A stretch of DNA of 64,000 nucleotides from Escherichia coli (GCF_041886205.1 NZ_CP169029.1); one strand, 5' to 3'; shown: positions 1 to 44,599, counted from the first letter of the stretch. Numbers and translations: made by a program. The notes: generated by a model not told the origin, from the sequence alone.

Positions 1-3000
1 TGCAGGCCGGGATGTGAGCAGTCAGGGTGCAGGTATCGCAGCGGAAGACAACATCACTGTCCGGGCCGGGCGCGACGTTAATCTGCTGGCGGAAGAGTCC
101 GTGACCGGCAGCAGTTCATACTCGAAAAAGAAAACGGTCATTGATGAAACCGTTCGCCAGCAGGGAACGGAAATCGCCAGCGGTGGTGACACCACCATTA
201 CTGCAGGACGGGATATCACCGCTGTTGCGTCATCCGTTACCGCAACCGGCAATATCAGTGTGAATGCCGGTCGTGATGTCGCCCTGACCACGGCGACAGA
301 AAGTGACTATCACTATCTGGAAACGAAGAAAAAAAGCGGAGGTTTTCTCAGTAAGAAAACCACCCACACCATCAGTGAGAACAGTGCCACCCGTGAAGCA
401 GGCGCCCTGCTGTCGGGGAACCGCGTGACCGTTAACGCCGGTGATAACCTGACAGTACAGGGTTCGGATGTGGTGGCTGACCGGGATGTGTCACTGGCGG
501 CGGGTAACCATGTTGATGTTCTTGCTGCCACCAATACAGATACGTCCTGGCGCTTTAAGGAAACGAAGAAATCCGGTCTGATGGGTACCGGCGGTATTGG
601 TTTCACCATTGGCAGCAGTAAGACAACGCACGACCGCCGCGAGGCCGGGACAACGCAGAGTCAGAGTGCCAGCACCATCGGCTCCACTGCCGGTAATGTC
701 AGTATTACCGCGGGCAAACAGGCTCATATCAGCGGTTCGGATGTGATTGCGAACCGGGATATCCGCATTACCGGTGACAGTGTGGTGGTTGACCCGGGGC
801 ATGACCGTCGTACTGTGGACGAAAAATTTGAGCAGAAGAAAAGCGGGCTGACGGTTGCCCTTTCCGGCACAGTGGGCAGTGCCATCAATAATGCGGTTAC
901 CAGTGCACAGGAGACGAAGGAGAGCAGTGACAGCCGTCTGAAAGCCCTGCAGACCACAAAGACAGCGCTGTCTGGTGTGCAGGCCGGACAGGCTGCGGCA
1001 ATGGCCACCGCAACCGGTGACCCGAATGCGACGGGAGTCAGCCTGTCGCTCACCACCCAGAAATCGAAATCACAACAACATTCTGAAAGTGACACAGTAT
1101 CCGGCAGTACGCTGAATGCCGGGAATAATCTGTCTGTTGTCGCAACCGGCAAAAACAGGGGCGATAACCGCGGAGATATTGTGATTGCAGGAAGCCAGCT
1201 TAAGGCCGGTGGTAACACAAGCCTGGATGCCGCGAATGATATTCTGTTGAGTGGCGCTGCAAATACACAAAAAACAACGGGCAGGAACAGCAGCAGTGGC
1301 GGTGGCGTGGGTGTCAGTATCGGTGCCGGTGGTAACGGTGCCGGTATCAGTGTCTTTGCCAGCGTTAATGCGGCAAAAGGCAGCGAGAAAGGTAACGGTA
1401 CTGAGTGGACTGAAACCACAACAGACAGCGGTAAAACCGTCACCATCAACAGTGGTCGGGATACGGTACTGAACGGTGCTCAGGTCAACGGCAACAGGAT
1501 TATCGCCGATGTGGGCCACGACCTGCTGATAAGCAGCCAGCAGGACACCAGTAAGTACGACAGTAAACAGACCAGCGTGGCTGCCGGCGGCAGTTTTACC
1601 TTTGGCTCCATGACCGGCTCAGGTTACATCGCTGCCTCCCGGGATAAGATGAAGAGCCGCTTTGATTCCGTTGCTGAACAAACCGGAATGTTTGCCGGTG
1701 ACGGCGGCTTCGACATTACAGTGGGCAGACATACCCAACTGGATGGTGCGGTGATTGCCTCCACTGCCACACCGGATAAAAACCACCTGGATACCGGAAC
1801 GCTGGGGTTCAGTGACCTTCACAACGAAGCGGATTATAAAGTCAGTCACAGTGGAATCAGTCTGAGCGGTGGTGGCAGCTTCGGGGATAAATTTCAGGGT
1901 AACATGCCGGGTGGCATGATATCCGCCGGAGGTCACAGCGGACATGCGGAAGGAACGACTCAGGCCGCAGTGGCAGAAGGCACTATCACCATCCGGGACA
2001 GGGACAATCAGAAGCAGAATCTGGCGAACCTGAGCCGTGACCCTGCGCACGCTAATGACAGTATCAGCCCGATATTTGACAAGGAGAAAGAGCAGAGGCG
2101 TCTGCAGACAGTGGGGCTTATCAGTGACATAGGCAGTCAGGTGGCGGATATTGCGCGTACACAGGGAGAACTGAATGCGTTGAAGGCCGCGAAGGAAGCA
2201 ACCGGCGAAACACTTCCTGCTAATGCAACAGAGAAACAACGTCAGGAATATCTTGCGAAACTGCGTGACACGCAGGCTTACAGGAATGAAATGGCGAAGT
2301 ATGGCACTGGTAGTGAAATTCAGCGGGGTATCCAGGTCGCGATGGCAGCGCTTCAGGGCCTGGCGGGCGGCAATATGGCAGGCGCGCTGGCAGGTGCTTC
2401 AGCGCCGGAGCTGGCGAACATCATCGGTCATCACGCGGGTATTGATGACAATACAGCTGCAAAAGCCATTGCCCATGCCATTCTCGGTGGTGTGACAGCA
2501 GCCCTTCAGGGCAACAGTGCGGCAGCAGGCGCAATTGGCGCGGGTACTGGCGAAGTGATCGCGTCAGCCATTGCGAAAAGCCTCTACCCGGACGTAGATC
2601 CGTCGAAACTGACAGAAGAGCAGAAGCAAACTGTAAGCACGCTGGCAACGCTGTCAGCGGGTATGGCCGGCGGTATTGCCAGTGGCGATGTGGCTGGCGC
2701 GGCTGCTGGGGCTGGTGCCGGGAAGAACGTTGTTGAGAATAATTTACTTGGCGGTAGTGAAGATGCTCAGGCTGCGTGGATACGCCAGCATGGTATCGAC
2801 ATGGCGACATGTGCAGAAAACCCTTCCGGTGCCGCCTGCCAGAAAGCAATGAATGAGAGGGATGCTGTAGGGCTGGCTCTGGCAACAGGTACAGTGGCAC
2901 TACTCCCCGGTAGTGCTCAGGCTATGTGGGGACTGGGAGCAAGTGCGAATGCTGGTATCAGTTATCTGGCTGATGGTACTGTAGATCCGGCAAACGCAGC

Positions 3001-3406
3001 CATTGCAGGCTGGGTGAATGTGTTCAGCATGGGTAATGGCCTGGCGGGGACTGTGGGCTGGAATGCGGCAGGTGGTGCGCTGGGTAACTGGATCGACAAC
3101 AAAGATCCTCTGTCTGGTGCAATTTCAAATGGTATCGGTTCTGCTGCCGGGTATGGTATCGGTAAAGGTGTTACTTGGGGGACAGATAAGATTACGAATG
3201 CTGTAGGAAAATGGGTGACAAATGGCTGGGATCCTAAGTACGATCCAACATGGATAAAATATGCTGAAGTAAATCGTAACGATATCATTCGAGAAGGCAT
3301 GAAACCGAGCAATGTTCCTGGAACTGCTGGAGATATTGGCGGTTCTATAGGATCTGAGCTAGGTGGAAAAGTAACAGATAAAGTATCTGAGGAACTCAAG
3401 AAATGA
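1..3406 (+). CDS. cdiA: CdiA contact-dependent inhibition exoprotein, C-terminal part (5' partial, gene continues upstream of window)
   Basis: Frame open from window start; repeated AGRD/AGND hemagglutinin-type repeats; pretoxin region; VENN motif encoded at 2732-2743 followed by a ~220-aa glycine-rich C-terminal domain ending in a K-rich tail. Confidence 0.85.
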
Positions 3407-5820: not shown

Positions 5821-7173
5821 GATATTGCCGGGCTCAGCCGGGACCCGGAAAACGCCAACGGCAGCATTGCACCGATATTTGACAGGGAGAAAGAGCAGAA
5901 GCGTCTTCAGGAAGCGCAGGTTATCAGCCAGATTAGCGGTCAGATGAGTAACATCGTCATGACGTATGGCGAAACTGAAGCGATGAAAGCAGCCAGGAAA
6001 GAGCATCCTGGCATGAGCGATGCACAGTTGCGGGAGACTCCGGAATACAGAGAGGTCATGAAAGGCTACGGTACGGGCAGTACGCCGCAGATGGTGGTAC
6101 AGGCCATCACAGGCGTGCTGGGCGGACTGAATGCAGGGAATCCGGGGCAGGTACTGGCTGGCGGTCTGAATCCGGCAGTGGCACAGCTTATAAAACAGGC
6201 CACCGGCGATAACCGGGAAGCAAACCTGATGGCTCACGCAGTCTGGGGAGCGCTTGCCGCACAACTGGGCGGAAACAATGCGGCTTCCGGTGCTGCAGGG
6301 GCATTCAGCGGTGAACTTGCAGCCCGGTATATCATTGATAACTACTACGGTGGTCGTACCGATAACCTGAGTGAACAGGAACGTCAGCAAATCAGCATGC
6401 TGGCCACCATTGCCTCAGGTATTGCGGGCGGGCTTGTCGGCAACAGTACAAGTGCTGCCGGTACGGGGGCACAGGCAGGCAGGAACTCGGTTGAGAATAA
6501 TGCGCTGAGTCTGGTTGCCAGAGGCTGTGCGGTCGCAGCACCTTGCAGGACTAAAGTTGCAGAGCAGTTGCTGGAAATCGGGGCGAAAGCGGGCATGGCC
6601 GGGCTTGCCGGGGCGGCAGTCAAGGATATGGCCGACAGGATGACCTCCGATGAACTGGAGCATCTGATTACCCTGCAAATGATGGGTAATGATGAGATCA
6701 CTACTAAGTATCTCAGTTCGTTGCATGATAAGTACGGTTCCGGGGCTGCCTCGAATCCGAATATCGGTAAAGATCTGACCGATGCGGAAAAAGTAGAACT
6801 GGGCGGTTCCGGCTCAGGAACCGGTACACCACCACCATCGGAAAATGATCCTAAGCAGCAAAATGAAAAACCTGTAGATAAGCTTAATCAGAAGCAAGAA
6901 AGTGCGATTAAGAAGATCGATAACACTATAAAAAATGCTCTGAAAGATCATGATATTATTGGAACTCTCAAGGATATGGATGGTAAGCCAGTTCCTAAAG
7001 AGAATGGAGGATATTGGGATCATATGCAGGAAATGCAAAATACGCTCAGAGGATTAAGAAATCATGCGGATACGTTGAAAAACGTCAACAATCCTGAAGC
7101 TCAGGCTGCGTATGGCAGAGCAACAGATGCTATTAATAAAATAGAATCAGCCTTGAAAGGATATGGAATATGA
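5821..7173 (+). CDS. Orphan cdiA pretoxin-VENN-CT module 3; toxin domain ends with GYGI
   Basis: ~220 codons homologous to the cdiA pretoxin region ([22 protein letters not shown]...), VENN at 6490-6501, C-terminal tetrapeptide GYGI at 7159-7170; first ATG at 5944. Confidence 0.7.
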
Positions 7174-7556
7174 TTACCTTACGTAAATTGATTGGAAACA
7201 TCAATATGACAAAAGAGCCTGAGCAACAATCACAGCTTGAACTCTGGTTCGAACGTATCATAGATGTGCCTCTTGAAAAGTTAACAGTGGAAGATCTTTG
7301 CCGCGCTATCCGACAAAATTTATGTATTGATCAGTTGATGCCAAGAGTGTTGGAAGTTCTAACTAAAGAGCCGTTAGCGGGTGAATATTACGATGGTGAA
7401 CTAATTGCAGCTTTATCAACGATAAAAGGAGAAGATCTAAAAGATCAGAAAAGTACCTTTACCCAAATAAGGCAACTTATAAACCAGCTAGAACCGTCAG
7501 ATATTAACGATGATTTAAGAAAAGATATATTAAAAATCAATCAGATAATTGTATAA
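7170..7556 (+). CDS. Orphan cdiI 3 (128 aa, soluble-type immunity protein)
   Basis: ATGA overlap with module 3 stop; non-hydrophobic protein. Confidence 0.55.
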
Positions 7557-7597
7557 CTAATCCCGGTCACTGAGCCGAGATCTTCTTTGTGTGCCGG

Positions 7598-9415
7598 GCA
7601 TGTTCAGCAGCTCGGGGGTGAAAGTCCCCTGTCCAGCCTGATGGTGGCGAAGGACTAGCGAAGCGCAAGGGCGTCGTCGTAAGGCGGGGTCTGAAGGAAG
7701 CGTGAAGCAAATCCATGACCTGACGAACAGAAATCCGATACGAGGCCTACCCGGTTGGCGGAGCAAGCAAAGAATTGCGAAGGCCATAACCATCAAGAAC
7801 CGGGGGGTAAATCGGACAGGTGTGTGGTGAAGGCGTCTGAACTTACCCCGGGAGGCCTGTCCGTCGTTCTGTATCTAGAACTTAGCGTACCGTAAGGGGC
7901 GCTGACCGGCGGACAGGAGTCAGCAGAGGGCATAGTAGGGCATGACACCCGAAGGCCCGAACGGTAATGAGTGACGAGTATCAACGGAGGTTCTGAACGG
8001 TCATGCAGCAGAAAACGCATCGCGCCCCTGAGGCCGGAGAACGGGGTGAAGCCCCGAACGCCGCCCTTCCGGGGGCTGAAACCGTGCAGGCACCGACGAA
8101 CAGAGAAAGTCCGTCGTCAACAGTGTGGCTGATGGAAGCCATTTGTGAACCAGTCAATCTCAGGCAAGCCCTGAAAAGAGTTAAAGCCAACAAAGGTGCA
8201 GCGGGAGTCGATGGTATGCGCGTAAGCGAACTGCCGGACTACCTGAGGCACCACTGGCCAGAGCTGAAAGCGCAACTACTGTCTGGCAGATACCGCCCAT
8301 CTCCTGTGAGAAGAGTGTCCATACCGAAGCCCGGCGGCGGCGAACGTCTGCTGGACATCCCGACGGTGGTGGATCGCTTCATCCAGCAGGCGATGATGCA
8401 GGTATTGCAGGGGCACTGTGGGATAGCTCGTTCAGCGATAACAGCTACGGGTTCCGTCCCGGTCGTTCGGCCCACCAGGCAGTGATACAGGCCCGGGAAC
8501 ATATCGGGGCCGGGTATCACTGGGTGGTCGACCTCGATCTGGAGAAGTTCTTCGACCGGGTAAATCACGATGTGCTGATGAGCCGGATAGAGAAACGAGT
8601 ATCGGATAAACGGGTGTTGTCACTTATCCGCAGGTTCATGAATGCAGGGGTGATGGACGCAGGTCTGGTAAGGCCGGTGACAGAAGGAACGCCGCAGGGC
8701 GGCCCACTGTCGCCGCTGCTATCGAACCTGCTGCTTGACGACCTCGACAAGGAACTGGAGAAACGTGGTCTGAAGTTCGTGCGGTACGCAGACGACTGTA
8801 ATGTCTACGTGAAAAGCGAACGGGCAGACAACCGGATCATGGCGGGGTTGACGCACTGGCTGAGCCATAAACTGAAGCTGAAGGTCAACGCGAAGAAGAG
8901 TGCTGTAGCACGCCCTGAAACGCGCAAGTTCCCTGGATACAGCTTCATAAGGGGGCGGAAGGTATGGTGCGTGGTATCGCCGGAGTCGATAAAACGGTTC
9001 AAAATGCGGATAAGAGCACTGACCGGACGCAACACAGGGAGAAGCCTTGAACAGCTAACCCGGTTGCTAAAACGATATCTGACGGGCTGGAAAAGTTACT
9101 ACGGGCTGAACCAGAGGCCATCGCTGATGCGAGAGCTGAACGGATGGATAAGGCGCAGTCGAGGCGTAAGCAAGGACCTTGCGGCGCAAACAGCAGGAAG
9201 CTGCCATAAAGAGTGGCGGATAAGCTGTAGTCCGGCACTGAATATAGCACTCCCCAATAATCTGTTCTCCAGACTGGGCCTGCCAGAAGTATAGGCAGGC
9301 GACGATCAACATAACCGAACCGCCGTATACGGCCCCATACGTACGGTGGTGTGGGAGGAAGCTGATCGTGAGATCAGCTCCTATCCCGATTTAACCGTCA
9401 GTCTCCCCCAAAATG
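7598..9415 (+). mobile_element. Group II intron (boundaries approximate)
   Basis: GUGUG-type 5' start near 7598, structured GC-rich RNA domains, internal RT/maturase ORF, domain V-like hairpin near 9320-9360. Confidence 0.65.
8003..9294 (+). pseudogene. Group II intron reverse transcriptase/maturase, frameshifted near 8420-8430
   Basis: RT motifs (SYGFRPGRSAHQA, YADD) split between ORF 8003-8485 and ORF 8482-9294; the correct frame switches between ...QVLQ and LWDSSFSDNSYGF. Confidence 0.75.
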
Positions 9416-9956: not shown

Positions 9957-11444
9957 TCACCCGGAGAAGGTAAATCCCTCAAGAGGCAGCAACTCTGCCA
10001 GTCGCTCCTCCGGCCACTCCGGCAGACGCATCAGGACGTCTGTCAGCCAGGCATGCGGCTCCAGACCGTTGCGTTTCGCGGTTTCCAGCAAGCTCATTAT
10101 TTGCGCGGCGCGTTCTCCTGCCATCTGCGAACCGGCGAACAGCCACGATTTTCTGCCCAGGACCACGTTTTTGATGGCCCGTTCACACACATTATTATCC
10201 AGCGGCACCGCACCATCTTCCAGGAAGCGGCTTAGTTCCACGCGATGAGACAGCGCATAGACAATGGCTTTGTGTAATGCCCTTCCCGGAGAACATTGCG
10301 GTTCCTGCTCTTCAAGCCATGACCACAGATCTTCCAGTATCGGACGGGCATAACGCTGTCGCCACTGGCGGATTTTTTCCACGGGGCGGCTACTGATCTT
10401 CTTCTCAAGACGGTACAACCCCGCGATTTTCTTCACGGCGATGGCAGCCCGTGGATCTTTACTGATTTTATACAGGTCGGCGAAGCCCCTGCGGGCATGG
10501 GACCAGCATCCGGCCAGCGTGATCTCCGGCACTTTGTTTGCCAGAGTCCGGTAAGCTTTATGTCCGTCGACAACCAGCGTCCCGCCCCAGCCCTGAAGCC
10601 AGTTTTCAGGATACTCATGGCTACGTCCGGTCCGGCAGTTGAAGCACACAACTGACGGTCCCGTCCTTTCTCCACTGACGTATGCCCACAGATAACCGGA
10701 GCAGGATTTACCGCCTTTCTTCGTGTTCAGGAGCTTCAGGGTAGTCTCATCTGCATGCACCACCGGACGGTTTATCAACTCGCGATGGAGTAACGCCGCC
10801 AGGGGAGATAATGCGGCACCCGCCGCGCCAACCATGTCAGCCATCGAACTGACGGGAAGCCCGACATCTGAACGGGCAAAGACCTGTTGCTGGCGATACA
10901 GAGGCAGGTGGTCACCGTATTTATTGATGATCACCTGTGCGATGACTGATGGCTCAACGGCACTTTTCGGGAGGATATGTGCCGGCATTTCACCGCTGAA
11001 CACCTTCTGGCAACAGGGACAACTGTATTGCGGACGGACATAACAGTTCACCACGAAGTGAGCGGGAATATACTCCAGCTTTTCACTCACCGCATCACGG
11101 ATATAGTGCAGCGGCTCGTCACATTCAGGGCAATGGTCAGTGTCCGGCTGGATAATTTTTTCCACCCGTGGAAGATGAGCCGGTAAGGATTTGCGTATCG
11201 GGCGTGAACGGGACGCTTTTTCGTCTTCTTCAGGGGATTGCGGGAGCAGTTTATCCAGATGTGCGGTAAGCGCGGCGATATCGACATCAACATCCTCTTC
11301 GAACAGGGAGCGTTGCATACCAGCCAGCGTTTCACATTTTTTACCGAAGCGCTGTTGACGAACCAGTTTCAGCATTTCTTCCAGAAGCTGGATGCGCCGG
11401 CTTTTCTCCAGTAATTCCCGCTCTTTTTCGGCATTCTCCGACAT
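9957..11444 (-). CDS. tnpC: IS66-family transposase TnpC
   Basis: 495 aa; motifs [17 protein letters not shown], zinc-finger cysteines. Confidence 0.85.
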   Translation of the reverse strand: MSENAEKERELLEKSRRIQLLEEMLKLVRQQRFGKKCETLAGMQRSLFEEDVDVDIAALTAHLDKLLPQSPEEDEKASRSRPIRKSLPAHLPRVEKIIQPDTDHCPECDEPLHYIRDAVSEKLEYIPAHFVVNCYVRPQYSCPCCQKVFSGEMPAHILPKSAVEPSVIAQVIINKYGDHLPLYRQQQVFARSDVGLPVSSMADMVGAAGAALSPLAALLHRELINRPVVHADETTLKLLNTKKGGKSCSGYLWAYVSGERTGPSVVCFNCRTGRSHEYPENWLQGWGGTLVVDGHKAYRTLANKVPEITLAGCWSHARRGFADLYKISKDPRAAIAVKKIAGLYRLEKKISSRPVEKIRQWRQRYARPILEDLWSWLEEQEPQCSPGRALHKAIVYALSHRVELSRFLEDGAVPLDNNVCERAIKNVVLGRKSWLFAGSQMAGERAAQIMSLLETAKRNGLEPHAWLTDVLMRLPEWPEERLAELLPLEGFTFSG

Positions 11445-11564
11445 GACTTTTTATACCATGGCAAGTGCCATGGCACGCAGTTTTTCGATGTCATTCGTGG
11501 TGTTGAGAGCGGAGATGTCCATACAGGGGAGCATACCACTCCGGATACGGATATTAATTATTTT

Positions 11565-11957
11565 TCAATTAGTTAGCAGTGTATTTTGCGTGTTTTCAGG
11601 GCGCAGTTCAGGTTCATTCTGCCAGACCCATTTCGTCAGGTCATGTCCCTTAACCTGCTGCCAGTCAACACCGGCAATCAGCCAGTTAAACTCGTCGGGA
11701 GTGAGGTGCCAGGCAGCATCATTTGCACATGGCCAGCGGAAGCTGCCTTTGTGCAGACGGCGGGTACACAACCACACCCCGTGTTTATCCCACCGGAGAA
11801 CTTTGATACGCGAACGGGCTTTGTTAACAAAGACGAAGGCGGCTCCCCCATGCCATATCGACCGGAGTTCATCCTGTATATACTGCGTCAGTGCGTCGAT
11901 GCCCCGGCGCATGTCAACAGGTTTAATTGCGATGAAGACATTATCAGGACTGAGCAT
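11565..11957 (-). CDS. tnpB: IS66-family Orf2 (TnpB)
   Basis: Aligns with TnpB of the second IS66 copy (VLWADSDGLCLF / VLRWDKHGVWLC); start chosen at the internal Met. Confidence 0.75.
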   Translation of the reverse strand: MLSPDNVFIAIKPVDMRRGIDALTQYIQDELRSIWHGGAAFVFVNKARSRIKVLRWDKHGVWLCTRRLHKGSFRWPCANDAAWHLTPDEFNWLIAGVDWQQVKGHDLTKWVWQNEPELRPENTQNTLLTN

Positions 11958-12273
11958 ATTTGAGCGCCCTGAAGACATCGGTAAGTTGTGACGGCTGACA
12001 GCACATCCGTACTCCACCGGGAAGGAGGAGCGTGACTGGCTCATTCGTGACGGGCTGTGGTACATCAGCATGCAGTGGTGGCGCAATATGAACGGGAAGA
12101 ACGGTCGGTTCATTTGCCCGGCGTTCAGCTTTTGCGACATCCTGCGGCCATTCGCGAAGTGATGTGAAGGGAATATCGTTGAGTTCACAGTATTGCTGAC
12201 GTGTAAGACCACTGGCGCGCCAGGCAGCACGTTGCTGCCTTTTCTGTTCAATGGTCCATCGGGGTTTTGACAT
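11944..12273 (-). CDS. tnpA: IS66-family Orf1 (TnpA)
   Basis: 109 aa, immediately upstream of and overlapping tnpB. Confidence 0.7.
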   Translation of the reverse strand: MSKPRWTIEQKRQQRAAWRASGLTRQQYCELNDIPFTSLREWPQDVAKAERRANEPTVLPVHIAPPLHADVPQPVTNEPVTLLLPGGVRMCCQPSQLTDVFRALKYAQS

Positions 12274-12276
12274 TGA

Positions 12277-13413
12277 TTATCTCCGGTAAGTTGGTGAATG
12301 AATGTCGGTAATGCTAACTGACTGAAAATCTCTGTGAAGATGACTTCCCCGTAACGACACCTTCTTTATCGCCTGCCGAATGACGCTGTTCAGCGATTCG
12401 ATGGCATTCGTCGTGTAGATGGCCTTGCGGATATCCGGTGGGTAACCGAAGAAGGTGTTGAGATTTTCCCAGTGTGTGCGCCAGCTCTTGCTGATTTGCG
12501 GGTATTTTTTATCCCAGACGCCTGCAAACTTATCCAACGCCATCAACGCAGCTTCCTCTGTCGGGGCCTGATATACCGCTTTCAGCCCGCTGGTGACGGC
12601 TTTGTAATCCTTCCACGACACGAATTTCAGGCTGTTGCGCACCATATGGATGATGCAGAGCTGAATATGCGTCTGCGGGTATACGCTATTTATCGCTTCC
12701 GGGAAGCCTTTCAGGCCGTCCACGCAGGCAATCAGGATGTCCTGAAGGCCACGATTTTTCAGCTCAGTCAGTACACCCAGCCAGAACTTTGCACCTTCAT
12801 TTTCTGCCAGCCACATACCCAGCAGCTCTTTCTGACCGTCGGTATTGATGCCCAGCGCGAGGAACACCGCTTTGTTAATGACACTCCCGCCGTGACGAAC
12901 CTTAACCACAATACAGTCAAGATAAACAATGGGATACAGTGCATCCAACGGTCGGTTTTGCCATTCAGAGACCTGTTCTTTAACCGCATCGGTCACTTTG
13001 GATATCAGCGTGGGCGAGACATCGGCGTCGTACATTTCTTTGAACGTGGCAACGATTTCCCGCGTAGTCATGCCTTTGGCATACAGGGACAAAATCTGGC
13101 TGTCCATCTGGGTGATGCGTGTCTGATGCTTCTTAATTAGTTGCGGTTCGAAGGTATTTTCACGGTCACGCGGCGTGTTAAGTTCGATCTCGCCATCATC
13201 GCACAATACCGTTTTTGACGAGTAGCCATTACGGGTATTAGAGCCTGATTTAGGAGCATTTTTCTCATGACCGAGATGGTCAGTCAGTTCTGCATTGAGC
13301 GCCGTTTCGACGGTAAGCTTTGTCAACATGCGTGAAAACTGGTTGAGGTCGGCTTCGGTTTTAAGGCCTTTGGCCAGTTCAGCCGCAAGAGCTTTAAGTT
13401 TCTTTTCGTCCAT
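12277..13413 (-). CDS. IS256-family transposase, C-terminus apparently replaced at the junction with IS66 element 1
   Basis: 378 aa with IS256-type transposase features (MULE/DDE region); C-terminal 27 residues look non-native. Confidence 0.65.
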   Translation of the reverse strand: MDEKKLKALAAELAKGLKTEADLNQFSRMLTKLTVETALNAELTDHLGHEKNAPKSGSNTRNGYSSKTVLCDDGEIELNTPRDRENTFEPQLIKKHQTRITQMDSQILSLYAKGMTTREIVATFKEMYDADVSPTLISKVTDAVKEQVSEWQNRPLDALYPIVYLDCIVVKVRHGGSVINKAVFLALGINTDGQKELLGMWLAENEGAKFWLGVLTELKNRGLQDILIACVDGLKGFPEAINSVYPQTHIQLCIIHMVRNSLKFVSWKDYKAVTSGLKAVYQAPTEEAALMALDKFAGVWDKKYPQISKSWRTHWENLNTFFGYPPDIRKAIYTTNAIESLNSVIRQAIKKVSLRGSHLHRDFQSVSITDIHSPTYRR

Positions 13414-13718
13414 CGTTTGCCTGTCTCCGTTGTTGGAGTGAACATATCAAAAACAGGCAATTACACAATTTTAATTACAGTCTCTTCGGTTATTAACGAA
13501 ACTCAACAATAGCGCCTGGTTGTGAAACCAGTTTAACCATTTGAAGCTTAAACTCATTTGAAAATGATCTGCGGGGTTTTGCAGATAATGTTTTCTGTTC
13601 CATAACAGGTGTCCACTAGTTTTGAAGGTGGGCACCTACGTTACCAATACTGGCTTAATGTGTATTAGCTCAGACCTGATCTGACAGTTACCGGTTATTT
13701 ATACAGGTATCTGTCAGA

Positions 13719-14804
13719 TTACATCTGGCTTAAATTTTTCTCGACCCAGATGCGTTTTCCATCAAGTAACGTTTCCATTGGCGTCCGCCCATTGCACATT
13801 TTTCCCTGATGGGTTCGCTCATTATTATAGTGAGCCAGCCATTCATCAAGATCCGACTGTAATGTATCAAGATCGCCGTACAGTTTTTTACGGAACGTTA
13901 CCTGATAAAATTCGTTCAGGATTGTTTTATGGAACCGCTCGCAGATGCCGTTGGTCTGCGGGGACATCGCCTTTGTTTTCGTGTGTTCTATATCGTTTAT
14001 TGCCAGATAAAGCTGATAATCATGCTGCTCTACTTTGCCACAGTACTCCGTGCCTCTGTCGGTCAGTATTCTCAGCATCGGCAGGCCCTGAGACGCATAA
14101 AACGGCAGTACACGATCATTCAGTAAGTCAGCTGCGGTAATCGGTGTTTTGGTGACGTAAAGCTTACAGTGAGCCACTTTCGAGTACGTATCAACGAACG
14201 TCTGCTGATAAATACGCCCGACACCTTTCAGGTTGCCTACATAGAACGTGTCCTGCGAACCCAGATATCCAGGATGAGCCGTTTCGATTTCGCCACAGGC
14301 CTCGTCATCACTGGCTTTACGCTCCAGTGCTGCGATCTGGCTGTCAGTTAGCTCAATGCCATCACGGGCTACTTTTTCTTCCAGTGCTTTCAGACGTTTT
14401 TTGAAATTCTCAAGGTTATGGCGTAACAAGACAGAACGGACACCACTGCCGGAGATAAAAACGCCCTGTTTACGCAGCTCGTTGCTGGTCCGGTGCTGAC
14501 CGTGTGCCGGGAAAGCGACGGCGTAATCAACAACAGCCTGTTCAGTTGCCTCATCGGTACGGTTCTTAAGGTTAGGAGCGCGGCGACTACGATTAATCAG
14601 CGCATCCACACCGCCTTCATCGACCAGTTCGCGGTAACGATAAAACGTATCACGCGAAACGCCCATGATTTTACAGACTTTTGATTCGTTGCTGAGTTCT
14701 TCCGCCAGATTGAGCAAACCGGCTTTGTGTTTGATAACGGGATTGGTAGTATGAAGCATGAGAGTTACCTCGTGTTTTGTATAAGGATTCGACACCCATA
14801 TCAA
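13719..14804 (-). CDS. Transposase, HTH + DDE (rve) integrase core, IS481-family-like
   Basis: 361-aa single ORF with N-terminal HTH and integrase-core motifs. Confidence 0.7.
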   Translation of the reverse strand: MIWVSNPYTKHEVTLMLHTTNPVIKHKAGLLNLAEELSNESKVCKIMGVSRDTFYRYRELVDEGGVDALINRSRRAPNLKNRTDEATEQAVVDYAVAFPAHGQHRTSNELRKQGVFISGSGVRSVLLRHNLENFKKRLKALEEKVARDGIELTDSQIAALERKASDDEACGEIETAHPGYLGSQDTFYVGNLKGVGRIYQQTFVDTYSKVAHCKLYVTKTPITAADLLNDRVLPFYASQGLPMLRILTDRGTEYCGKVEQHDYQLYLAINDIEHTKTKAMSPQTNGICERFHKTILNEFYQVTFRKKLYGDLDTLQSDLDEWLAHYNNERTHQGKMCNGRTPMETLLDGKRIWVEKNLSQM

Positions 14805-14936
14805 AACCGGTAACTCTCAACCTTTCAAGGCTCAGTGTTAGCGCCAATGATATAAGACAGTAATTCACCATTTGAATTGTCCGCTCCACCCAACATGTTG
14901 TTTCCTTGAGGTTCTCACACCAGAAAGGACATCAAC

Positions 14937-16906
<1,970 letters not shown>

Positions 16907-17142
16907 TCAAACAGCGGACATTAAAAATGGCGAAACGGTCATAAATCCTGGCGTTGACATCAGTGTCAGATCAAGTCGCGACTAATACACTTAATGGCTA
17001 CATACGGCGGTCAGTTTACGCTTACGAAAGGACGAACTTTTCTAAGGGCTTTTTTCCTTAAGTGGGGCTTGGATATTCGGAGTGGATTGTATTTAAAACG
17101 AATATCCAAGCAATCAAACTCTAGTCTACAAAACACATAAAT

Positions 17143-17226
17143 TCATGCACGTATCCATCCATGCTGTAGATAATCAGCTGTGATAATAGCAGCCGCTACT
17201 GAAGCAATTGAATGGAAAGCGTCGTC
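17143..17226 (-). pseudogene. Displaced 3' end (last 27 codons + stop) of the PNP-domain gene, separated from the gene body by IS66 element 2
   Basis: Joining minus-strand 19941 to 17226 across the TSD restores an in-frame ending ...STKDDAFHSIASVAAAIITADYLQHGWIRA*. Confidence 0.6.
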
Positions 17227-17287
17227 TTTTGTGCGTAACCGGCTCATTTAAACCGTCTGGTCTGTTTCCTCCGGCTCTACAAAAATA

Positions 17288-17965
17288 ATGTCCATCATTT
17301 TTAATGGACACTATCGTATGAAACACCGGACCTGGATCACTGAAGCTTTACGTCTTCACTTTGAAGAACATTTACCCCGGGTTGTGGCCGGGCGTCGCCT
17401 GGGTGTACCAAAATCAACAGTTTGTAGTATGTTCGTGCGCTTTCGGAGAGCTGGCCTTTCGTGGCCTTTGCCCGCAGGCATGTCGGAGCAGGAACTTGAT
17501 GCCTGCCTTTACGGACAATTTTCCACGGTACCAGTCGTACGTCCTGAAAGCACCGTTATATCCGAAGCCCCCGTGGTAAAAAAACGTCCCCGGCGGCCCA
17601 ACTTCCCTTATGAGTTTAAAATCGCCTTAGTGGAGCAGTCACTGCAGCCCGGAGCCTGTGTGGCGCAGATCGCCCGGGAAAACGGAATCAACGATAACCT
17701 GCTCTTCAACTGGCGCCATCAATACCGGAAAGGTGGCCTGCTGCCTTCCGGAAAAAATATGCCGGCACTGCTTCCCGTGACGTTAACGCCGGAGCCGGAT
17801 AATAAAATCCCGGCCCCCGCACAGGAACCAGAGCAGATAAATACACCGTCCGACAGTCTGTGTTGTGAGCTGGTTCTGCCGGCCGGAACTCTCAGGCTTA
17901 AAGGTAAACTGACGCCGGCGTTATTACAGACACTTATCCGCGAAATAAAAGGGAGCAGCCACTGA
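17288..17965 (+). CDS. tnpA: IS66-family Orf1 (TnpA-like); start uncertain
   Basis: HTH region; first gene after the left inverted repeat. Confidence 0.6.
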   Translation: MSIIFNGHYRMKHRTWITEALRLHFEEHLPRVVAGRRLGVPKSTVCSMFVRFRRAGLSWPLPAGMSEQELDACLYGQFSTVPVVRPESTVISEAPVVKKRPRRPNFPYEFKIALVEQSLQPGACVAQIARENGINDNLLFNWRHQYRKGGLLPSGKNMPALLPVTLTPEPDNKIPAPAQEPEQINTPSDSLCCELVLPAGTLRLKGKLTPALLQTLIREIKGSSH

Positions 17966-18312
17966 TGATATCTCTCCCTGCAGGTTCGCGTATCTGGCTG
18001 GTTGCAGGTATCACCGATATGCGAAATGGCTTTAACGGCCTGGCATCAAAAGTTCAGAACGTCCTGAAGGATGACCCGTTCTCCGGACACCTGTTCATCT
18101 TCCGCGGACGCCGGGGTGACCAGATAAAAGTGTTGTGGGCTGACAGTGACGGACTGTGCCTCTTCACCAAACGCCTGGAGCGGGGCCGCTTCGTCTGGCC
18201 AGTCACCCGTGACGGCAAGGTGCACCTTACTCCGGCTCAGTTATCCATGCTTCTTGAAGGTATCAACTGGAAGCACCCGAAACGAACGGAACGCGCTGGA
18301 ATCCGCATATAA
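17965..18312 (+). CDS. tnpB: IS66-family Orf2 (TnpB)
   Basis: 115 aa, typical TnpB sequence. Confidence 0.85.
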   Translation: MISLPAGSRIWLVAGITDMRNGFNGLASKVQNVLKDDPFSGHLFIFRGRRGDQIKVLWADSDGLCLFTKRLERGRFVWPVTRDGKVHLTPAQLSMLLEGINWKHPKRTERAGIRI

Positions 18313-18331
18313 CCCGTTGTAAAGTGAGGAT

Positions 18332-19903
18332 ATGGACACCTCACTTGCTCATGAGAACGCCCGCCTGCGGGCACTGTTGCAGACGCAACAGGACACCATC
18401 CGCCAGATGGCTGAATACAACCGCCTGCTCTCACAGCGGGTGGCGGCTTATGCTTCCGAAATCAACCGGCTGAAGGCGCTGGTTGCGAAACTGCAACGTA
18501 TGCAGTTCGGTAAAAGCTCAGAAAAACTTCGTGCAAAAACCGAACGGCAGATACAGGAAGCACAGGAGCGAATCAGCGCACTTCAGGAAGAAATGGCGGA
18601 AACGCTGGGTGAGCAATATGACCCGGTACTGCCATCCGCCCTGCGCCAGTCTTCAGCCCGTAAACCGTTACCGGCCTCACTTCCCCGTGAAACCCGGGTT
18701 ATCCGGCCGGAAGAGGAATGCTGTCCTGCCTGTGGTGGTGAACTCAGTTCTCTGGGATGTGATGTGTCAGAGCAACTGGAGCTTATCAGCAGCGCCTTTA
18801 AGGTTATCGAAACACAACGTCCGAAACAGGCCTGTTGCCGGTGCGACCATATCGTGCAGGCACCAGTACCTTCAAAACCCATTGCACGCAGTTATGCCGG
18901 AGCGGGGCTTCTGGCCCATGTTGTCACCGGGAAATATGCAGACCATCTGCCGTTATACCGCCAGTCAGAAATATACCGTCGTCAGGGAGTGGAGCTGAGC
19001 CGTGCCACACTGGGGCGCTGGACAGGTGCTGTTGCTGAACTGCTGGAGCCGCTGTATGACGTCCTGCGCCAGTATGTGCTGATGCCCGGTAAAGTCCATG
19101 CTGATGATATCCCCGTCCCGGTCCAGGAGCCGGGCAGCGGTAAAACCCGGACAGCCCGGCTGTGGGTCTACGTCCGTGATGACCGTAACGCCGGTTCACA
19201 GATGCCCCCGGCGGTCTGGTTCGCGTACAGTCCGGACCGGAAAGGTATCCATCCACAAAATCACCTGGCCGGTTACAGCGGTGTGCTTCAGGCCGATGCT
19301 TACGGTGGTTACCGGGCGTTATACGAATCCGGCAGAATAACGGAAGCCGCGTGTATGGCTCATGCCCGGAGAAAAATCCACGATGTGCATGCAAGAGCGT
19401 CCACCTACATCACCACGGAAGCCCTGCAGCGTATCGGTGAACTGTATGCCATCGAGGCAGAGGTCCGGGGCTGTTCAGCAGAACAGCGTCTGGCGGCAAG
19501 AAAAGCCAGAGCCGCGCCACTGATGCAGTCACTGTATGACTGGATACAGCAACAGATGAAAACACTGTCGCGTCACTCAGATACGGCAAAAGCGTTCGCA
19601 TACCTGCTGAAACAGTGGGATGCACTGAACGTGTACTGCAGTAATGGCTGGGTGGAAATCGACAACAACATCGCAGAGAACGCCTTACGGGGAGTGGCCG
19701 TAGGCCGGAAAAACTGGATGTTCGCGGGTTCCGACAGCGGTGGTGAACATGCGGCGGTGTTGTACTCGCTGATCGGCACATGCCGTCTGAACAATGTGGA
19801 GCCAGAAAAGTGGCTGCGTTACGTCATTGAACATATCCAGGACTGGCCGGCAAACCGGGTACGCGATCTGTTGCCCTGGAAAGTTGATCTGAGCTCTCAG
19901 TAA
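18332..19903 (+). CDS. tnpC: IS66-family transposase TnpC
   Basis: 523 aa; leucine-zipper N-terminus, zinc-finger cysteines, [20 protein letters not shown]. Confidence 0.9.
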
Positions 19904-19906
19904 ATA

Positions 19907-21382
19907 TCAATACGGTTCTGACGAGTCGCTTACTTTTGTGCTGTCGCCAAAATCACTAATCCCTCTCACAATAAGCGCTGGAACTCCCTGCTTTTCGCAG
20001 GCATCAAATACCCCATAGGCTTCCATTTCGGCAACACAGGCTTTGTCATGAAGCGACCTGAAACGTTCTAGTAAAGCAGGATCGCGGATAAGAAGCTCTC
20101 CTGATGCGATAGTGGCTGAAGAAACAATTATCCCAGCAGCTACGTCTCCAGCCTGCGAATTTTCAGGCATTTCGAGTCCTATAGCCTGTGCCCGTTCGCC
20201 AAGACGTGCGGATAGTGACGTTGTTGCAAGGTAAGTATTGAGGTTTTGTTTAGTTGGCATATGGAGACATAATATTTCAGGTCGAGGAGCAAACTTCCCA
20301 CCTTCTAATGCGGCTGCACTTTCATAATAAATGACACGCTCAGAAATAATGACTTCACCTAGCACCATTTTTTCTCTCAACCCCGCCGCAATCCCCATCA
20401 TCAAGACTTTTTGGGGTTTGAATTCCGACAACAACATGGTAGTAATAGCTGAAGCATTCACATTTCCAGCACTAGCGAAAGACGCCACTATGCCAGTTAC
20501 TGGGCCATCTGAGCGTTGTATGGATGTGGACCAGAAATGTATTCCATTTGATGTGAGCCGCGGAGATTCATCATCAGCTATGCCAAATACTTTCTTGGCT
20601 GCAGCAAGTTCAACTGGTAGAGCTGTCAAAATCAACACATTTGGAGTATGCAGCAACTGTTGTGCAGCCCATTCAGCTTTAAGCAATTCAACTGCGATTT
20701 CTGAAAGTCGTTCCAGTCCATAGTAAGGTTCCTGTAACGATAAAGTGTCGAGCTGATTTTTTACGGCTTCACCGGTGCAAGGGAACATAGACAGCGGCTC
20801 TGCATAAAAACGTGCATGTAGGCCTAAAGCACCTTTTCCGTCATCGCAAATTCCCCCAAGCTCCAAGTCAAACGGTAATATGGGGTGGTTGGCTTTACGC
20901 ATTTTACTCGCACGATCGGAAACGCCTTTTCCTCCACCTAATGCAATCATGGCTGTGGCAGCATCAACCTGCTCGCTTCCAATATTTCCTCCAGTAATGA
21001 GATCATCATCTAGATAGCTGACATCAGCAAATCTAGCTGCCTGAAGTTTACGAATAAGCATCCGATTCTCTTCAGACATTTTCTCCCGCATTGCAGAACG
21101 CGACGTGACGATCTTGAGTTGGTGGGCTGGCGTATAATTCTCCATTAAATCTACAGCTTCTTTTACTATCGTCCAGTCGAAGGTCAGGAGATCCCCATTT
21201 TCATTAACAGGTTCTCCTGCCAAATAGACAACTAGTCCCACATTTGCATCAAGGATGCTCTTCGTCAATGCTCGAACGAAACTATGTGCTCGATCAATAT
21301 AAAGTTTTTCTGTATTTTTGGATATACTTCCAGCGATCAGAACATACTCATTATTAGTATTTGTCATCACAATTCTTCCCAA
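19907..21382 (-). CDS. Two-domain protein: N-terminal Rossmann-like domain with GGGKG motif (possible ligand sensor) + C-terminal PNP/MTA-nucleosidase-family domain; 3' end interrupted by IS66 element 2
   Basis: C-terminal half has nucleosidase-like motifs (VAEMEAYGV, RGISDFGD); last 8 codons and stop are IS-encoded (VSDSSEPY*). Confidence 0.6.
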   Translation of the reverse strand: MGRIVMTNTNNEYVLIAGSISKNTEKLYIDRAHSFVRALTKSILDANVGLVVYLAGEPVNENGDLLTFDWTIVKEAVDLMENYTPAHQLKIVTSRSAMREKMSEENRMLIRKLQAARFADVSYLDDDLITGGNIGSEQVDAATAMIALGGGKGVSDRASKMRKANHPILPFDLELGGICDDGKGALGLHARFYAEPLSMFPCTGEAVKNQLDTLSLQEPYYGLERLSEIAVELLKAEWAAQQLLHTPNVLILTALPVELAAAKKVFGIADDESPRLTSNGIHFWSTSIQRSDGPVTGIVASFASAGNVNASAITTMLLSEFKPQKVLMMGIAAGLREKMVLGEVIISERVIYYESAAALEGGKFAPRPEILCLHMPTKQNLNTYLATTSLSARLGERAQAIGLEMPENSQAGDVAAGIIVSSATIASGELLIRDPALLERFRSLHDKACVAEMEAYGVFDACEKQGVPALIVRGISDFGDSTKVSDSSEPY

Positions 21383-21396
21383 AGGAGTATTACTTG

Positions 21397-22296
21397 TTAC
21401 TGTTTAAGTAAGGCATAGATTTCATCCTTGTTTTTTAATGCTAACTGTAATGCTTCCGGCGCCTGATGTGACTGAGTCTCTGTAAGATTTAACTGGAAAA
21501 GAAGGTAGTGCAGCAAAGCTTGTCGGCATTCCAGATGGATTTCTCCGTCGATCATTGCATAATCTCTCTCAATAAGGTTTCGTTGAGCAAGGCATAGTCC
21601 AGGATGCGCTATAAGAATAATTTTGATGAATGTATTCCACGCTAAATCACCATTAGCCCTCTCTTCATCGGGTCCGGCGTTTTGTGCCTGCACTATTCGC
21701 GACAATAAAAAGTCCCTATATTCACCACGTTTATGACACCATGCTCTTGTGTGCCAGCGATAACCATCATGGACTAATGAATGAGGAGTCAAGGTTCGTT
21801 TACTGCCTTGAGGGTCACTCATGGATTGATAAATAACATGAACAGCCTCATTTTCACGTATAGCTCGTAATATTTGACTTACGACATCAGTGTCCAGTCT
21901 ACGTAACAGTCGTGGAACCGCTGCAACGGGTGAGCGCCAGCCCAGAAAGCTTCCAAAATGAATTTCAGGTTGTATTGCCACTCGCAGCAAATCATTCAGA
22001 TAACATTCCAGAGAGCTGGTCATATAAACTGGCTGAAACAATTTCGTTGAACGGTAAACTCGGGAACTCATATCGTACTCAAGATTATCGGGGGCTAACT
22101 TAGTATATTCACTAAGATCCAGCGAAGCTTGAGGTACTGATATGCCGAAAAAATCAGTGAGGCTGCTACGATTGATTTGCCCATCCCATCGAAGTCGATA
22201 ATCAATAAATTCAAGCCGACGCTCTTGGCCCCATCTCGCACCTTGCCGTCCTTTTTGGCTGTCTTGCTTATCCCCTTCTCTAAAGTTATCTGGCAT
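21397..22296 (-). CDS. WYL-domain transcriptional regulator (CapW/BrxR-like)
   Basis: 299 aa; N-terminal wHTH, central WYL-type motif (HDGYRWHTRAWCHKRGEYRDFLLSRI); divergent from the nucleotidyltransferase operon. Confidence 0.65.
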   Translation of the reverse strand: MPDNFREGDKQDSQKGRQGARWGQERRLEFIDYRLRWDGQINRSSLTDFFGISVPQASLDLSEYTKLAPDNLEYDMSSRVYRSTKLFQPVYMTSSLECYLNDLLRVAIQPEIHFGSFLGWRSPVAAVPRLLRRLDTDVVSQILRAIRENEAVHVIYQSMSDPQGSKRTLTPHSLVHDGYRWHTRAWCHKRGEYRDFLLSRIVQAQNAGPDEERANGDLAWNTFIKIILIAHPGLCLAQRNLIERDYAMIDGEIHLECRQALLHYLLFQLNLTETQSHQAPEALQLALKNKDEIYALLKQ

Positions 22297-22394
22297 CTTA
22301 GTTCCCGGTAGCGTATAAAAAATATCTCAATATAAAAAGTAGACGCAGAATAAAAACTGAACGTATAATAATGCTACGCTATAGGGCGGTAAGG

Positions 22395-22434
22395 TGCAAC
22401 CATCACCTCAGTCACTTCTGAGGTGATGGTTGCA
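22395..22434. promoter_or_regulatory. Perfect 17-bp inverted repeat (TGCAACCATCACCTCAG - 6 bp - CTGAGGTGATGGTTGCA) in the divergent intergenic region; candidate operator or 5'-leader hairpin
   Basis: Lies between a -10-like TATAAT (~22363) and the RBS/start at 22466. Confidence 0.5.
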
Positions 22435-22465
22435 GTTTTCATGAATGATCTTCGGAAGGATGTGA

Positions 22466-23410
22466 ATGCCACTCACTAATACTCAGATCCGATACTACGA
22501 CAGCAATGTACTGCGTTTGCCTAAGGATAAGCGTGAAACCTACAATGCCCAAGTAGATCGGCTTATTACAGCGTTACGTAAAAAACTGAAAGATCAGGAT
22601 AAAATAACAATAAAACGTGTCGTTAAAGCTGGTTCGTTTGCTAAACACACTATTCTACGCAAAACCTCAGACAGTCAGGTCGATGTGGATGTTGTGTTTT
22701 ACGTTAGTGGAGAGAAAGTTGCTGAGGAAACCTTCGCAAGCCTGAGCGAAAAAATTTACGAAGCCTTACTTAAAATGTATCCCAACAAAGCTGTAGAAGA
22801 TTTCGAGATTCAACGTAAGGCTGCTACTGTTTCTTTTGTCGGGACTGGATTAGATGTTGATATTGTTCCCGTCATCGAAAATCCGGACAAAGAAGGCTAT
22901 GGATGGCAGTTTGACCGTATCGATGGTTCGAAGACAGAGACTTGTGCTCCTTGCCAGATCAAATTTGTGAAAGATCGCAAAGACCAAGACCCGGACTTTC
23001 GTACTTTAGTACGCTTAGCTAAACGTTGGCGTACCAACATGGAATGCCCACTTAAGTCATTTCATATAGAACTAATCATGGCTCATGTACTAGAAGTCAA
23101 TGGAAAAGATGGTTCGTTGGAGAAGCGATTTCGGGATTTTCTACTGTACATTGCTGAATCAGGATTAAAAGAAGTTATCACCTTCCCTGAAAATAGCACT
23201 ATACCAGCATTTTCCCATCCAGTTGTCATACTGGATCCTGTTTGCGATACGAACAACGTTACCAGCCGTATTACCGAGGATGAGCGAAAAGAGATCGTCC
23301 GGATTGCTGAGGAAAGTTGGGCGACGGCAAATTTTGCGTCGGTAGAAGGAGACTATGATATCTGGAAGGAGCTGTTTGGTCGTTCATTTAAAGTGGAGGA
23401 TACAGCATGA
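22466..23410 (+). CDS. cGAS/DncV-like nucleotidyltransferase (CD-NTase-like)
   Basis: 314 aa; GS-x9-S-x5-DVD nucleotidyltransferase motif, third acidic residue in LDVDIVPV; RBS GGAAGGA upstream. Confidence 0.65.
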   Translation: MPLTNTQIRYYDSNVLRLPKDKRETYNAQVDRLITALRKKLKDQDKITIKRVVKAGSFAKHTILRKTSDSQVDVDVVFYVSGEKVAEETFASLSEKIYEALLKMYPNKAVEDFEIQRKAATVSFVGTGLDVDIVPVIENPDKEGYGWQFDRIDGSKTETCAPCQIKFVKDRKDQDPDFRTLVRLAKRWRTNMECPLKSFHIELIMAHVLEVNGKDGSLEKRFRDFLLYIAESGLKEVITFPENSTIPAFSHPVVILDPVCDTNNVTSRITEDERKEIVRIAEESWATANFASVEGDYDIWKELFGRSFKVEDTA

Positions 23411-23895
23411 GTTACTCCTCAACTGAAACATCGACTTATACCACAACAGACGTTGAAGCAGTCATGCGACGCATCACAGCTGACTTAGTGATGATTGCCG
23501 CCAGTACCGGTGCGATAACTGAATCAAAAGCACGTGAGTATGCTCACGATATAGAACTCTTAGCAAAAAATGGATATCTGGATTACGTCGATGTGACCCT
23601 TATAAGCAATGGCGTTGAACAGAAAGCAACCCGGTTTCATGTGAATGAGTCCGGAGAATTGGCAAATGACAGACCTGGAGACGCTCGTTGGCCGAGAATT
23701 CAGGGGGCTTATCTGCGGATTGTTGTGAACAACCGGAGTACCTACGATCAGGCTGCGAGGCAAAAGCTTTCAGGTAAGATGAAAATATCGTGGTCGCCAT
23801 GTAGTGATGACATCAGTCATTCAGGTTTGACCCAAAGTGGTGGTCGTGAATATTCCAGCAATGGTTATGGTATGCAACGTAAGGATTACAATTAA
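23407..23895 (+). CDS. Small protein (162 aa), possibly HORMA-like (Cap7-type); assignment from position and size only
   Basis: Translationally coupled (ATGA overlap) between the nucleotidyltransferase and the AAA+ ATPase. Confidence 0.35.
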   Translation: MSYSSTETSTYTTTDVEAVMRRITADLVMIAASTGAITESKAREYAHDIELLAKNGYLDYVDVTLISNGVEQKATRFHVNESGELANDRPGDARWPRIQGAYLRIVVNNRSTYDQAARQKLSGKMKISWSPCSDDISHSGLTQSGGREYSSNGYGMQRKDYN

Positions 23896-44523: not shown

Positions 44524-44599
44524 TGGTGCCCGGACTCGGAATCGAACCAAGGACACGGGGATTTTCAATCCCCTGCTCTACCGACTGAGCTATCCGGGC
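44524..44599 (-). tRNA. pheV: tRNA-Phe (GAA)
   Basis: 76-nt match to the canonical E. coli tRNA-Phe including CCA end; location next to yqgA and speC. Confidence 0.95.

Follow-up and report, generated by a model that had tools for sequence, protein, structure and literature searches.

An apparently degenerate class C group II intron copy behind the cdiI immunity gene of an orphan CDI module in Escherichia coli

The window, by which we mean the whole 64,000-nucleotide stretch of the Escherichia coli sequence NZ_CP169029.1 (GCF_041886205.1) that was analysed, carries at 14-3406 the C-terminal portion of a larger CdiA and, downstream of it, an orphan cdiA-CT/cdiI module:

5944-7173, plus strand: orphan cdiA-CT fragment of the EC536 type with a VENN pre-toxin motif (PT-VENN, E 6e-17)
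7170-7556, plus strand: cdiI immunity gene (Pfam CdiI_3, E 2e-28; WP_000631803.1 in strain ZYB39)

The reading frame of the cdiA-CT fragment extends upstream of the ATG at 5944, and in ZYB39, where the region is identical, RefSeq describes its product as a 'VENN motif pre-toxin domain-containing protein, missing N-terminus'. The terminator region of cdiI doubles as the 5' exon of a group II intron, which begins 32 nt after the cdiI stop codon; downstream of the intron lies a pile of IS66, IS256, IS481 and IS21 elements.

The intron occupies positions 7589-9390 on the plus strand (1802 nt) and runs from GUGUG at its 5' end to ...CCCGAU at its 3' end. These boundaries were drawn where homology with relatives starts (GTGTG) and stops (CCCGAT), the flanks being unrelated, and both ends follow the group II rules (GUGUG at 7589-7593 for GUGYG; AU at 9389-9390 for AY). 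An earlier note, made from the sequence, had placed a group II intron at 8003-9294: a pair of ORFs does lie exactly there, but the intron as a whole is larger. That this is a group II intron is borne out by Rfam covariance models of D1-D4, which match at 7673-7841 (RF02001, 130.2 bits, E 1.6e-26) and 7881-7957 (RF01998, 50.5 bits), both above the gathering score, by a match to domains V/VI at 9318-9390 that stays below the gathering score of 40 (RF00029, 33.6 bits, E 4e-4), and by the group II reverse transcriptase (RT) score of the encoded protein once its frame is restored (see below). The intron RNA is real, far beyond what chance would produce, and its domains are laid out as follows:

7589-8002, plus strand: domains I-III and the 5' part of domain IV (RF02001, RF01998 and RNAalifold consensus)
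9319-9350, plus strand: domain V, with the CGC triad at 9321-9323 and a 3-bp distal stem (Rfam alignment and folds)
9352-9388, plus strand: domain VI, in which the branch-point A bulges out at 9383, the 3' splice site lying 7 nt away

Secondary-structure modelling, by which the earlier call could be checked, agrees with it: from the 5' 415 nt of 10 copies, RNAalifold derived a consensus of 114 pairs, and compensatory changes were seen at 15 of these.

According to Toor et al. (2006, PMC1702495), class C (IIC) introns have an 11-nt bulge in the epsilon-prime region that carries a conserved AGGAA, and their domain V has CGC where AGC would otherwise stand, its distal stem being shorter by 2 bp than that of IIA and IIB introns. 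Judged from its sequence, the intron in the window is class C, each of the features that we looked for among those set out in PMC1702495 and by Zimmerly and Semper (2015, PMC4424553) being found in it. The triad at 9321-9323 is CGC, and intact relatives form a 3-bp distal stem closed by a tetraloop, a stem that in the window contains a C-A mismatch. The elements of domain I and of the exons that bear on the class are:

7689-7699, plus strand: IIC-specific 11-nt bulge GUCUGAAGGAA with AGGAA, unpaired in the RF02001 alignment
7763-7778, plus strand: EBS1 hairpin, stem GCAA/UUGC, loop GCAAAGAA, with EBS1 AAAG at 7769-7772
7585-7588, plus strand: IBS1 CUUU, the 4 nt that close the 5' exon, complementary to EBS1
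7705, plus strand: candidate EBS3, an A, facing IBS3, the T (U) at 9391 that is the first base of the 3' exon

Intact relatives encode a protein of 450 aa with RVT_1 (PF00078) and GIIM (PF08388) only, and the domain search found no endonuclease domain in them. The nearest relative of the intron protein in the PDB is the GsI-IIC RT of Geobacillus stearothermophilus (6ar1), to which the restored protein of the window aligns over residues 43-386 (E 3.6e-127); next come 7uim and 5hhj/5hhl, which we take to show the RT/maturases of IIC introns of Eubacterium rectale and Roseburia intestinalis.

The strongest single result for class C is the covariation of EBS1 with IBS1. The pairing is 3-4 nt long, as expected for this class, and EBS1 is complementary to IBS1 in every one of the 11 copies compared, in six sequence combinations, among them:

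EBS1 AAAG with IBS1 CUUU: the copies in the window, at mukB and in strain 2012C-4221
EBS1 CAU with IBS1 AUG: the Nord58 plasmid, 06-00048, P0014 and Salmonella copies
EBS1 AAG with IBS1 CUU: the Klebsiella copy
EBS1 AUG with IBS1 CAU: the Providencia and Yersinia copies
EBS1 ACG with IBS1 CGU: the Dickeya-like copy

The third contact is less clear. EBS3 and IBS3 would be A-T in the window and mukB copies and G-C in the Nord58, 06-00048 and P0014 copies, with a G-T wobble in the Providencia, Dickeya-like and Yersinia copies; the placement of EBS3 at 7705 is tentative because three of the eight compatible copies with known 3' exons need that G-U wobble.

In class C introns an intrinsic-terminator stem-loop, or attC, just upstream of the insertion does duty for IBS2, and domain I has no EBS2 motif; the 5' exons of the different copies compared here are unrelated in sequence, as would be expected if EBS2 is lacking in them too. 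All 11 copies sit directly after a hairpin followed by a T-rich run. The hairpin and T-run are perfect in nine of the 10 relatives, the Salmonella copy having a weaker, imperfect hairpin. The site in the window is also imperfect:

7560-7581, plus strand: imperfect terminator-like hairpin, the class C target motif, followed by CUUCUUU

It pairs AUC with GAU and CGGU with GCCG around a CACUGA loop and is predicted by RNAfold to reach -6.4 kcal/mol, against -12.8 to -17.3 kcal/mol for the perfect terminator hairpins of four relatives; a scan with a simple terminator consensus did not call it. A 5'-exon hairpin that is this weak and goes uncalled suggests that the target was an atypical terminator, resembling in this respect the 'mispaired stem' site of B.h.I1(X) (PMC1702495).

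The gene for the intron-encoded protein (IEP) is split between two ORFs that overlap by 4 nt, precisely where the earlier note had drawn them:

8003-8485, plus strand: ORF1, N-terminal part of the IEP (RT0-RT2), 160 aa, with an out-of-frame tail after 8413
8482-9294, plus strand: ORF2, part of RT2a, RT3-RT7 and a truncated X/thumb domain, 270 aa
8410-8413, plus strand: frameshift site, GGGG where intact copies have GG (+2 nt; alignment with relatives)
8785-8796, plus strand: YADD catalytic motif (RT5), intact (sequence and protein alignment)

The RT motifs are distributed over both ORFs, as had been proposed: the group II intron RT/maturase profile TIGR04416 (NCBIfam) is divided into positions 3-88 on ORF1 (103.7 bits) and 113-344 on ORF2 (237.8 bits), each below the cutoff of 300 bits, and when two G's are removed a single 429-aa protein results that scores 403 bits (E 1e-120). 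On ORF2, Pfam RVT_1 matches at positions 36-204 of 205 (E 6.6e-34) and GIIM at positions 1-57 of 80 only, a truncated match; ORF1 alone has no Pfam match. The open stretch of the ORF2 frame starts at 8185; from about 8413 on it is again homologous to the intact protein, and the rest of RT2a (LWDSSFSDNSYGFRPGRSAHQAV) lies in that frame upstream of the start codon at 8482. The frame change had been put at 8420-8430, between ...MMQVLQ and (A)LWDSSFS; these flanking peptides are correct, and alignment with intact group II intron ORFs, in which GG stands for the GGGG of the window, moves the lesion itself about 10 nt upstream, to 8410-8413. With the frame mended, an adjoining A>T change at 8417 would read as Q138L. 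Retron, Drt and Abi RT families were tried as alternatives for these ORFs and gave scores far under their cutoffs.

Nor does the frameshift stand alone, the copy having at least five lesions in all that appear degenerative. One intact copy, a sister intron 1864 nt long whose continuous ORF encodes the 450-aa protein P0001 (from a cluster of 232 member sequences), differs from the copy in the window by 23 substitutions and 3 indels (98.7% identity over aligned positions), and with an 87%-identical plasmid copy as outgroup for polarising the changes, the branch leading to the window copy receives the indels, five nonsynonymous and four synonymous changes (a sample too small to prove relaxed constraint), and both of the RNA changes that break helices. 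Three further lesions can be placed in the RNA and the gene:

7802-7807, plus strand: G6 run in domain I, 1 nt short of the run in relatives (GGGGTGG or GGGGGGG; alignment)
7836, plus strand: derived G>U that breaks the C7608-G7836 pair of a domain I stem (polarised with the outgroup)
9153-9158, plus strand: junction of a 63-nt in-frame deletion in the X/maturase (thumb) domain (alignment with intact copies)

The deletion costs the protein 21 aa, RLRSILWKQWKTGRNRFRELR, and in intact copies the 63 nt are flanked by a GCGCAG direct repeat. Two of the substitutions of the window branch fall on conserved residues, G118D (in the LGIP motif) and G275D. In the RNA, the column of the C7608-G7836 pair is CG in eight copies, CU in one (the window) and CA in one, and the derived change G9337A turns a C-G pair of the domain V distal stem into a C9330-A9337 mismatch at a position that is G in nine aligned relatives; with this pair broken, the canonical domain V fold is no longer the predicted minimum-energy structure. 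The short G run differs in its distribution. It has 6 nt only in the window, ZYB39, Z142-6 and GmM062, against 7 nt in six other copies of the same locus and in the equivalent position of all relatives checked, so that the base loss is, as far as these alignments go, specific to a sub-lineage; in the consensus fold it falls in an unpaired 2-nt bulge. What would mark an active element, namely a continuous IEP ORF, an intact maturase domain and an intact domain V, is absent from the copy on all three counts.

The same full-length copy is found at the same locus, with 99.7-100% identity, in nine complete E. coli genomes (ZYB39, 1303, Z142-6, GmM062, C311, A2, C41, EC11 and JNU), whose assemblies originate from Germany, China, Hong Kong, Australia, Russia and the USA. 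All nine carry the GGGG, the T at 8417 and the 63-nt deletion, and in all nine the intron gene is annotated as two CDSs and both ORFs are open; because the nine copies are at least 99.7% identical, these open ORFs tell little about selection. The intron region of ZYB39 is 100% identical to that of the window. As a side observation, the first 30 kb of the window are not colinear with ZYB39, and the ISCro1 that lies upstream in ZYB39 is absent from the window. Among the matches listed, each carrier genome has a single matching place, and thus no intact helper copy was seen there, and the GGGG variant occurs at one locus only.

Could the frameshift be less than what it seems? The earlier note had offered an inactivated intron copy and a sequencing indel as the two possibilities. 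An assembly or sequencing indel in a homopolymer, leaving the gene in truth continuous, might be suspected from the context, the lesion lying in the short G run at 8410-8413, of a kind that some platforms miscount, but the identical GGGG and T8417 come from nine independent complete assemblies made in different laboratories and countries, which in our view excludes the indel; the difference is moreover one of 2 nt with an adjacent substitution and not a 1-nt miscount, and the shared 63-nt deletion is impossible as a base-calling error. We regard this reading as next to impossible, and the GGGG shared by nine genomes together with the further lesions speaks for the inactivated copy. It is also conceivable that ribosomes slip by -1 on CAG GGG CAC, giving a fusion ...VLQGALWDSS... 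and leaving the intron active at a low, regulated level. Read from the sequence, a -1 shift of Gly-tRNA on G GGG would indeed restore the RT frame at the cost of one extra residue, both partial ORFs are open in all copies, and the predicted junction peptide would include ...VLQGALWDSSFSDNSYGFR. Against this, the site has no canonical X XXY YYZ heptamer, and the intact relatives lack the frameshift, which is thus not a conserved feature of the lineage; the restored protein would still be short of 21 maturase/thumb residues and still carry G118D and G275D, the domain I and domain V pairs would remain broken, and a variant confined, among the matches listed, to one locus gives no sign of mobility. 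Slippage in an active intron is on these grounds highly improbable.

The remnant could instead have been co-opted by the host or the island: cdiI might have gained a structured 3' UTR or a longer terminator, orphan cdiA-CT/cdiI modules a landmark for recombination, or ORF2 might act as an RT of its own. The intron or its 65-nt stub (see below) is kept at the 3' edge of EC536-type cdiI in about 200 genomes, and ORF2 keeps RT3-7 with YADD; linkage alone explains such retention, though, no promoter enrichment was found, and ORF2 lacks both RT0-2 and an intact thumb. The points of truncation differ, IS66 cutting the intron off at nt 65 in UPEC 536 and strain 10035210-2 having lost the 5' two-thirds, which argues against a conserved function, and we consider co-option very unlikely. 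A role for the remnant as a recombination or RNA-stability element at the 3' boundary of the module may conceivably be imagined.

The reading that we strongly favour makes 7589-9390 a class C group II intron that decayed after its insertion behind cdiI and is now degenerate and immobile. An active intron, from a lineage still alive in E. coli, would have reverse-spliced into the DNA downstream of the cdiI hairpin, guided by the 4-bp EBS1-IBS1 pairing (AAAG with CUUU) and by recognition of the stem-loop. Decay then followed, the +2 insertion splitting the RT/maturase gene, a microhomology deletion of 63 nt removing 21 thumb residues, and G118D, G275D and the broken domain I and domain V pairs adding to the damage, and the copy would have stayed on as a passenger where the cdiA-CT/cdiI module ends on its 3' side, presumably inherited vertically or with the island. 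The class C anatomy, the complementarity between intron and target and the inherited, apparently inactivating lesions can be read directly from the alignments; from them we infer that no functional intron-encoded protein can be made. With no functional maturase/RT, retrohoming would be impossible and efficient splicing unlikely, and the copy is in this sense probably 'dead'. YADD and most of the RT motifs are still intact, a point that speaks against calling it so.

The history of the insertion can be followed in other genomes. In UPEC 536, a near-identical cdiI (WP_000631802.1) stands after the primary cdiA; behind it come the same 29-nt exon, no more than the initial 65 nt of the intron, and a remnant of IS66 TnpC, and this 94-nt match of exon and stub is found in about 200 of 5,426 genomes. 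Behind EC536-type cdiI, nine genomes keep the full-length fossil and about 200 a stub of 65 nt. Strain 10035210-2 retains the last third of the intron, brought next to cdiB by a deletion, and strain 2012C-4221 carries in a prophage a 98% copy without the frameshift that is interrupted by IS100. On these comparisons the insertion behind cdiI looks old and single, eroded differently from lineage to lineage. The stronger proposal, that one old event travelled with the cdiA-CT/cdiI module and makes a usable marker of the displacement of orphan modules, we hold to be unlikely.

How does this copy compare with known introns? In GCA_012864015.2 (locus L015) an instance of the sister intron lies behind the mukB terminator. 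It agrees with the window copy in EBS1 (AAAG), IBS1 (CUUU), IBS3 (U) and domain organisation and likewise stands directly after a terminator; what it keeps, and the window copy has lost, is GG where the frameshift occurred, the X-domain stretch of 63 nt, and G at the affected positions of domains V and I. The IIC introns annotated as ltrA on an E. coli plasmid (WP_021562748.1, pNORD58_1) and in a prophage (WP_244585956.1, 06-00048) share architecture and lineage with the window intron (86-87% nucleotide identity) and likewise follow terminators, but differ in EBS1 (CAU), IBS1 (AUG) and IBS3 (C); pNORD58_1 has an intact 450-aa ORF, while 06-00048 has its own, different X-domain deletion. Further afield, a Dickeya zeae protein (P0030) is 79% identical. 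The model class C introns, B.h.I1 of Bacillus halodurans and GsI-IIC, come from another phylum and are active, whereas the copy in the window is degenerate. A study of Enterobacterales introns describes Di.ze.I1 and So.gl.I1 as class C introns inserted after Rho-independent terminators, and full-length copies with disrupted ORFs (E.c.I6, some E.c.I4) and island-borne fragments as the normal fate (Leclercq and Cordaux, 2012, PMC3522654); the decay of the window intron matches this pattern, and there is no mention in that study of this intron or of its insertion at the cdiI terminator. No group II intron database name could be assigned in a literature search over E.c.I1-E.c.I12. E.c.I3 and E.c.I4 were set aside as they target IS elements, in the case of E.c.I4 instead of terminators. 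E.c.I6 is reported in CFT073, S88, APEC O1 and ED1a, strains that gave no full-length match among the matches listed, and it is thus probably a different intron. The intron of a 2024 preprint from the Costa laboratory was also set aside, being a IIB1 intron at groEL.

The kind of object is ordinary and already known, a decayed class C group II intron, and beyond annotation its importance is small. The RefSeq 'hypothetical protein' and 'reverse transcriptase domain-containing protein' at this locus are the two halves of one pseudogene within a class C intron, and such intron ORFs beside a CDI locus should not be taken for a retron, a defence-associated RT or a novel RT gene. The copy represents textbook decay of a retroelement behind a terminator, a pattern already described for the Enterobacterales (PMC3522654). 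The shared insertion, be it the full copy or the 65-nt stub, shows where EC536-type cdiI modules end on their 3' side and could be of help in tracing their history.

The intron lineage recurs in other E. coli genomes, in copies that have decayed by different routes. A prophage-borne copy in strain 2012C-4221 (locus L004, 3007-6733) belongs to the same lineage with 98% identity and is free of the frameshift; it carries instead an IS100 inserted at the equivalent of window position ~8952, and this interruption is an independent route of inactivation. The related intron ORF of strain 06-00048 (locus L005, 3423-4640), annotated by RefSeq as ltrA (405 aa), has lost part of the X domain through a deletion of its own and, measured against the 450-aa RT/maturase of intact relatives, stops prematurely.

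Other genomes retain only one end of the element. In UPEC 536 (locus L006, NZ_CP066743.1, 5001-5094), the same 29-nt 5' exon comes after the primary cdiI, but the intron breaks off after its first 65 nt and gives way to a C-terminal remnant of the IS66 TnpC; this 5' intron stub is widespread, occurring in UPEC 536 and in some 200 further E. coli genomes. The 3' end persists separately: in strain 10035210-2 (locus L007, 2678-4472), a deletion that took out cdiA, cdiI and the first two-thirds of the intron joined a truncated cdiB (ShlB/FhaC family) directly to the last third, which corresponds to window 8949-9390. Shorter still, a 45-nt stretch in TUM20902 (locus L026, 1501-1545) is 100% identical to domain VI and the 3' end of the intron (window 9348-9392). 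In many E. coli (TUM20902 and other genomes, matches H68-H75) this stretch sits flush against an acyltransferase gene, at the gene's 3' end, and it probably represents a further stub of the intron, located elsewhere in the genome.

In the window itself, insertion sequences are piled up 3' of the intron (9957-19903):

9957-12273, minus strand, IS66
12277-13413, minus strand, IS256-family element, annotated as ISEc39 in ZYB39
13719-14804, minus strand, IS481-like element
14937-16906, plus strand, IS21
18332-19903, plus strand, TnpC ORF of a second IS66

Beyond them the window holds a CBASS-like defence cluster (19907-24791), for which the annotation of the corresponding ZYB39 region lists a WYL-domain protein together with a CBASS oligonucleotide cyclase, and two very large ORFs of a kind typical for defence islands:

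19907-21382, minus strand, Cap17-like ATP nucleosidase, a member of the CBASS-like cluster
27693-32651, 1652-aa protein with NERD, kinase-like and SF1 helicase domains
39097-42612, minus strand, 1171-aa helicase with a PLD-like nuclease domain

Rfam returned further matches in the window:

34694-34810, ALIL pseudoknot (IS3-family frameshift element)
44527-44599, minus strand, tRNA gene
56432-56589, two naRNA4 repeats in tandem

Beside the intron lies a CDI locus in two parts, with the orphan module further downstream of the CdiA part:

14-3406, C-terminal part of CdiA, 1130 aa, with haemagglutinin repeats and VENN
5944-7556, orphan EC536-type cdiA-CT fragment with its own cdiI

The 3' boundary of the orphan cdiA-CT/cdiI module lies at the intron.
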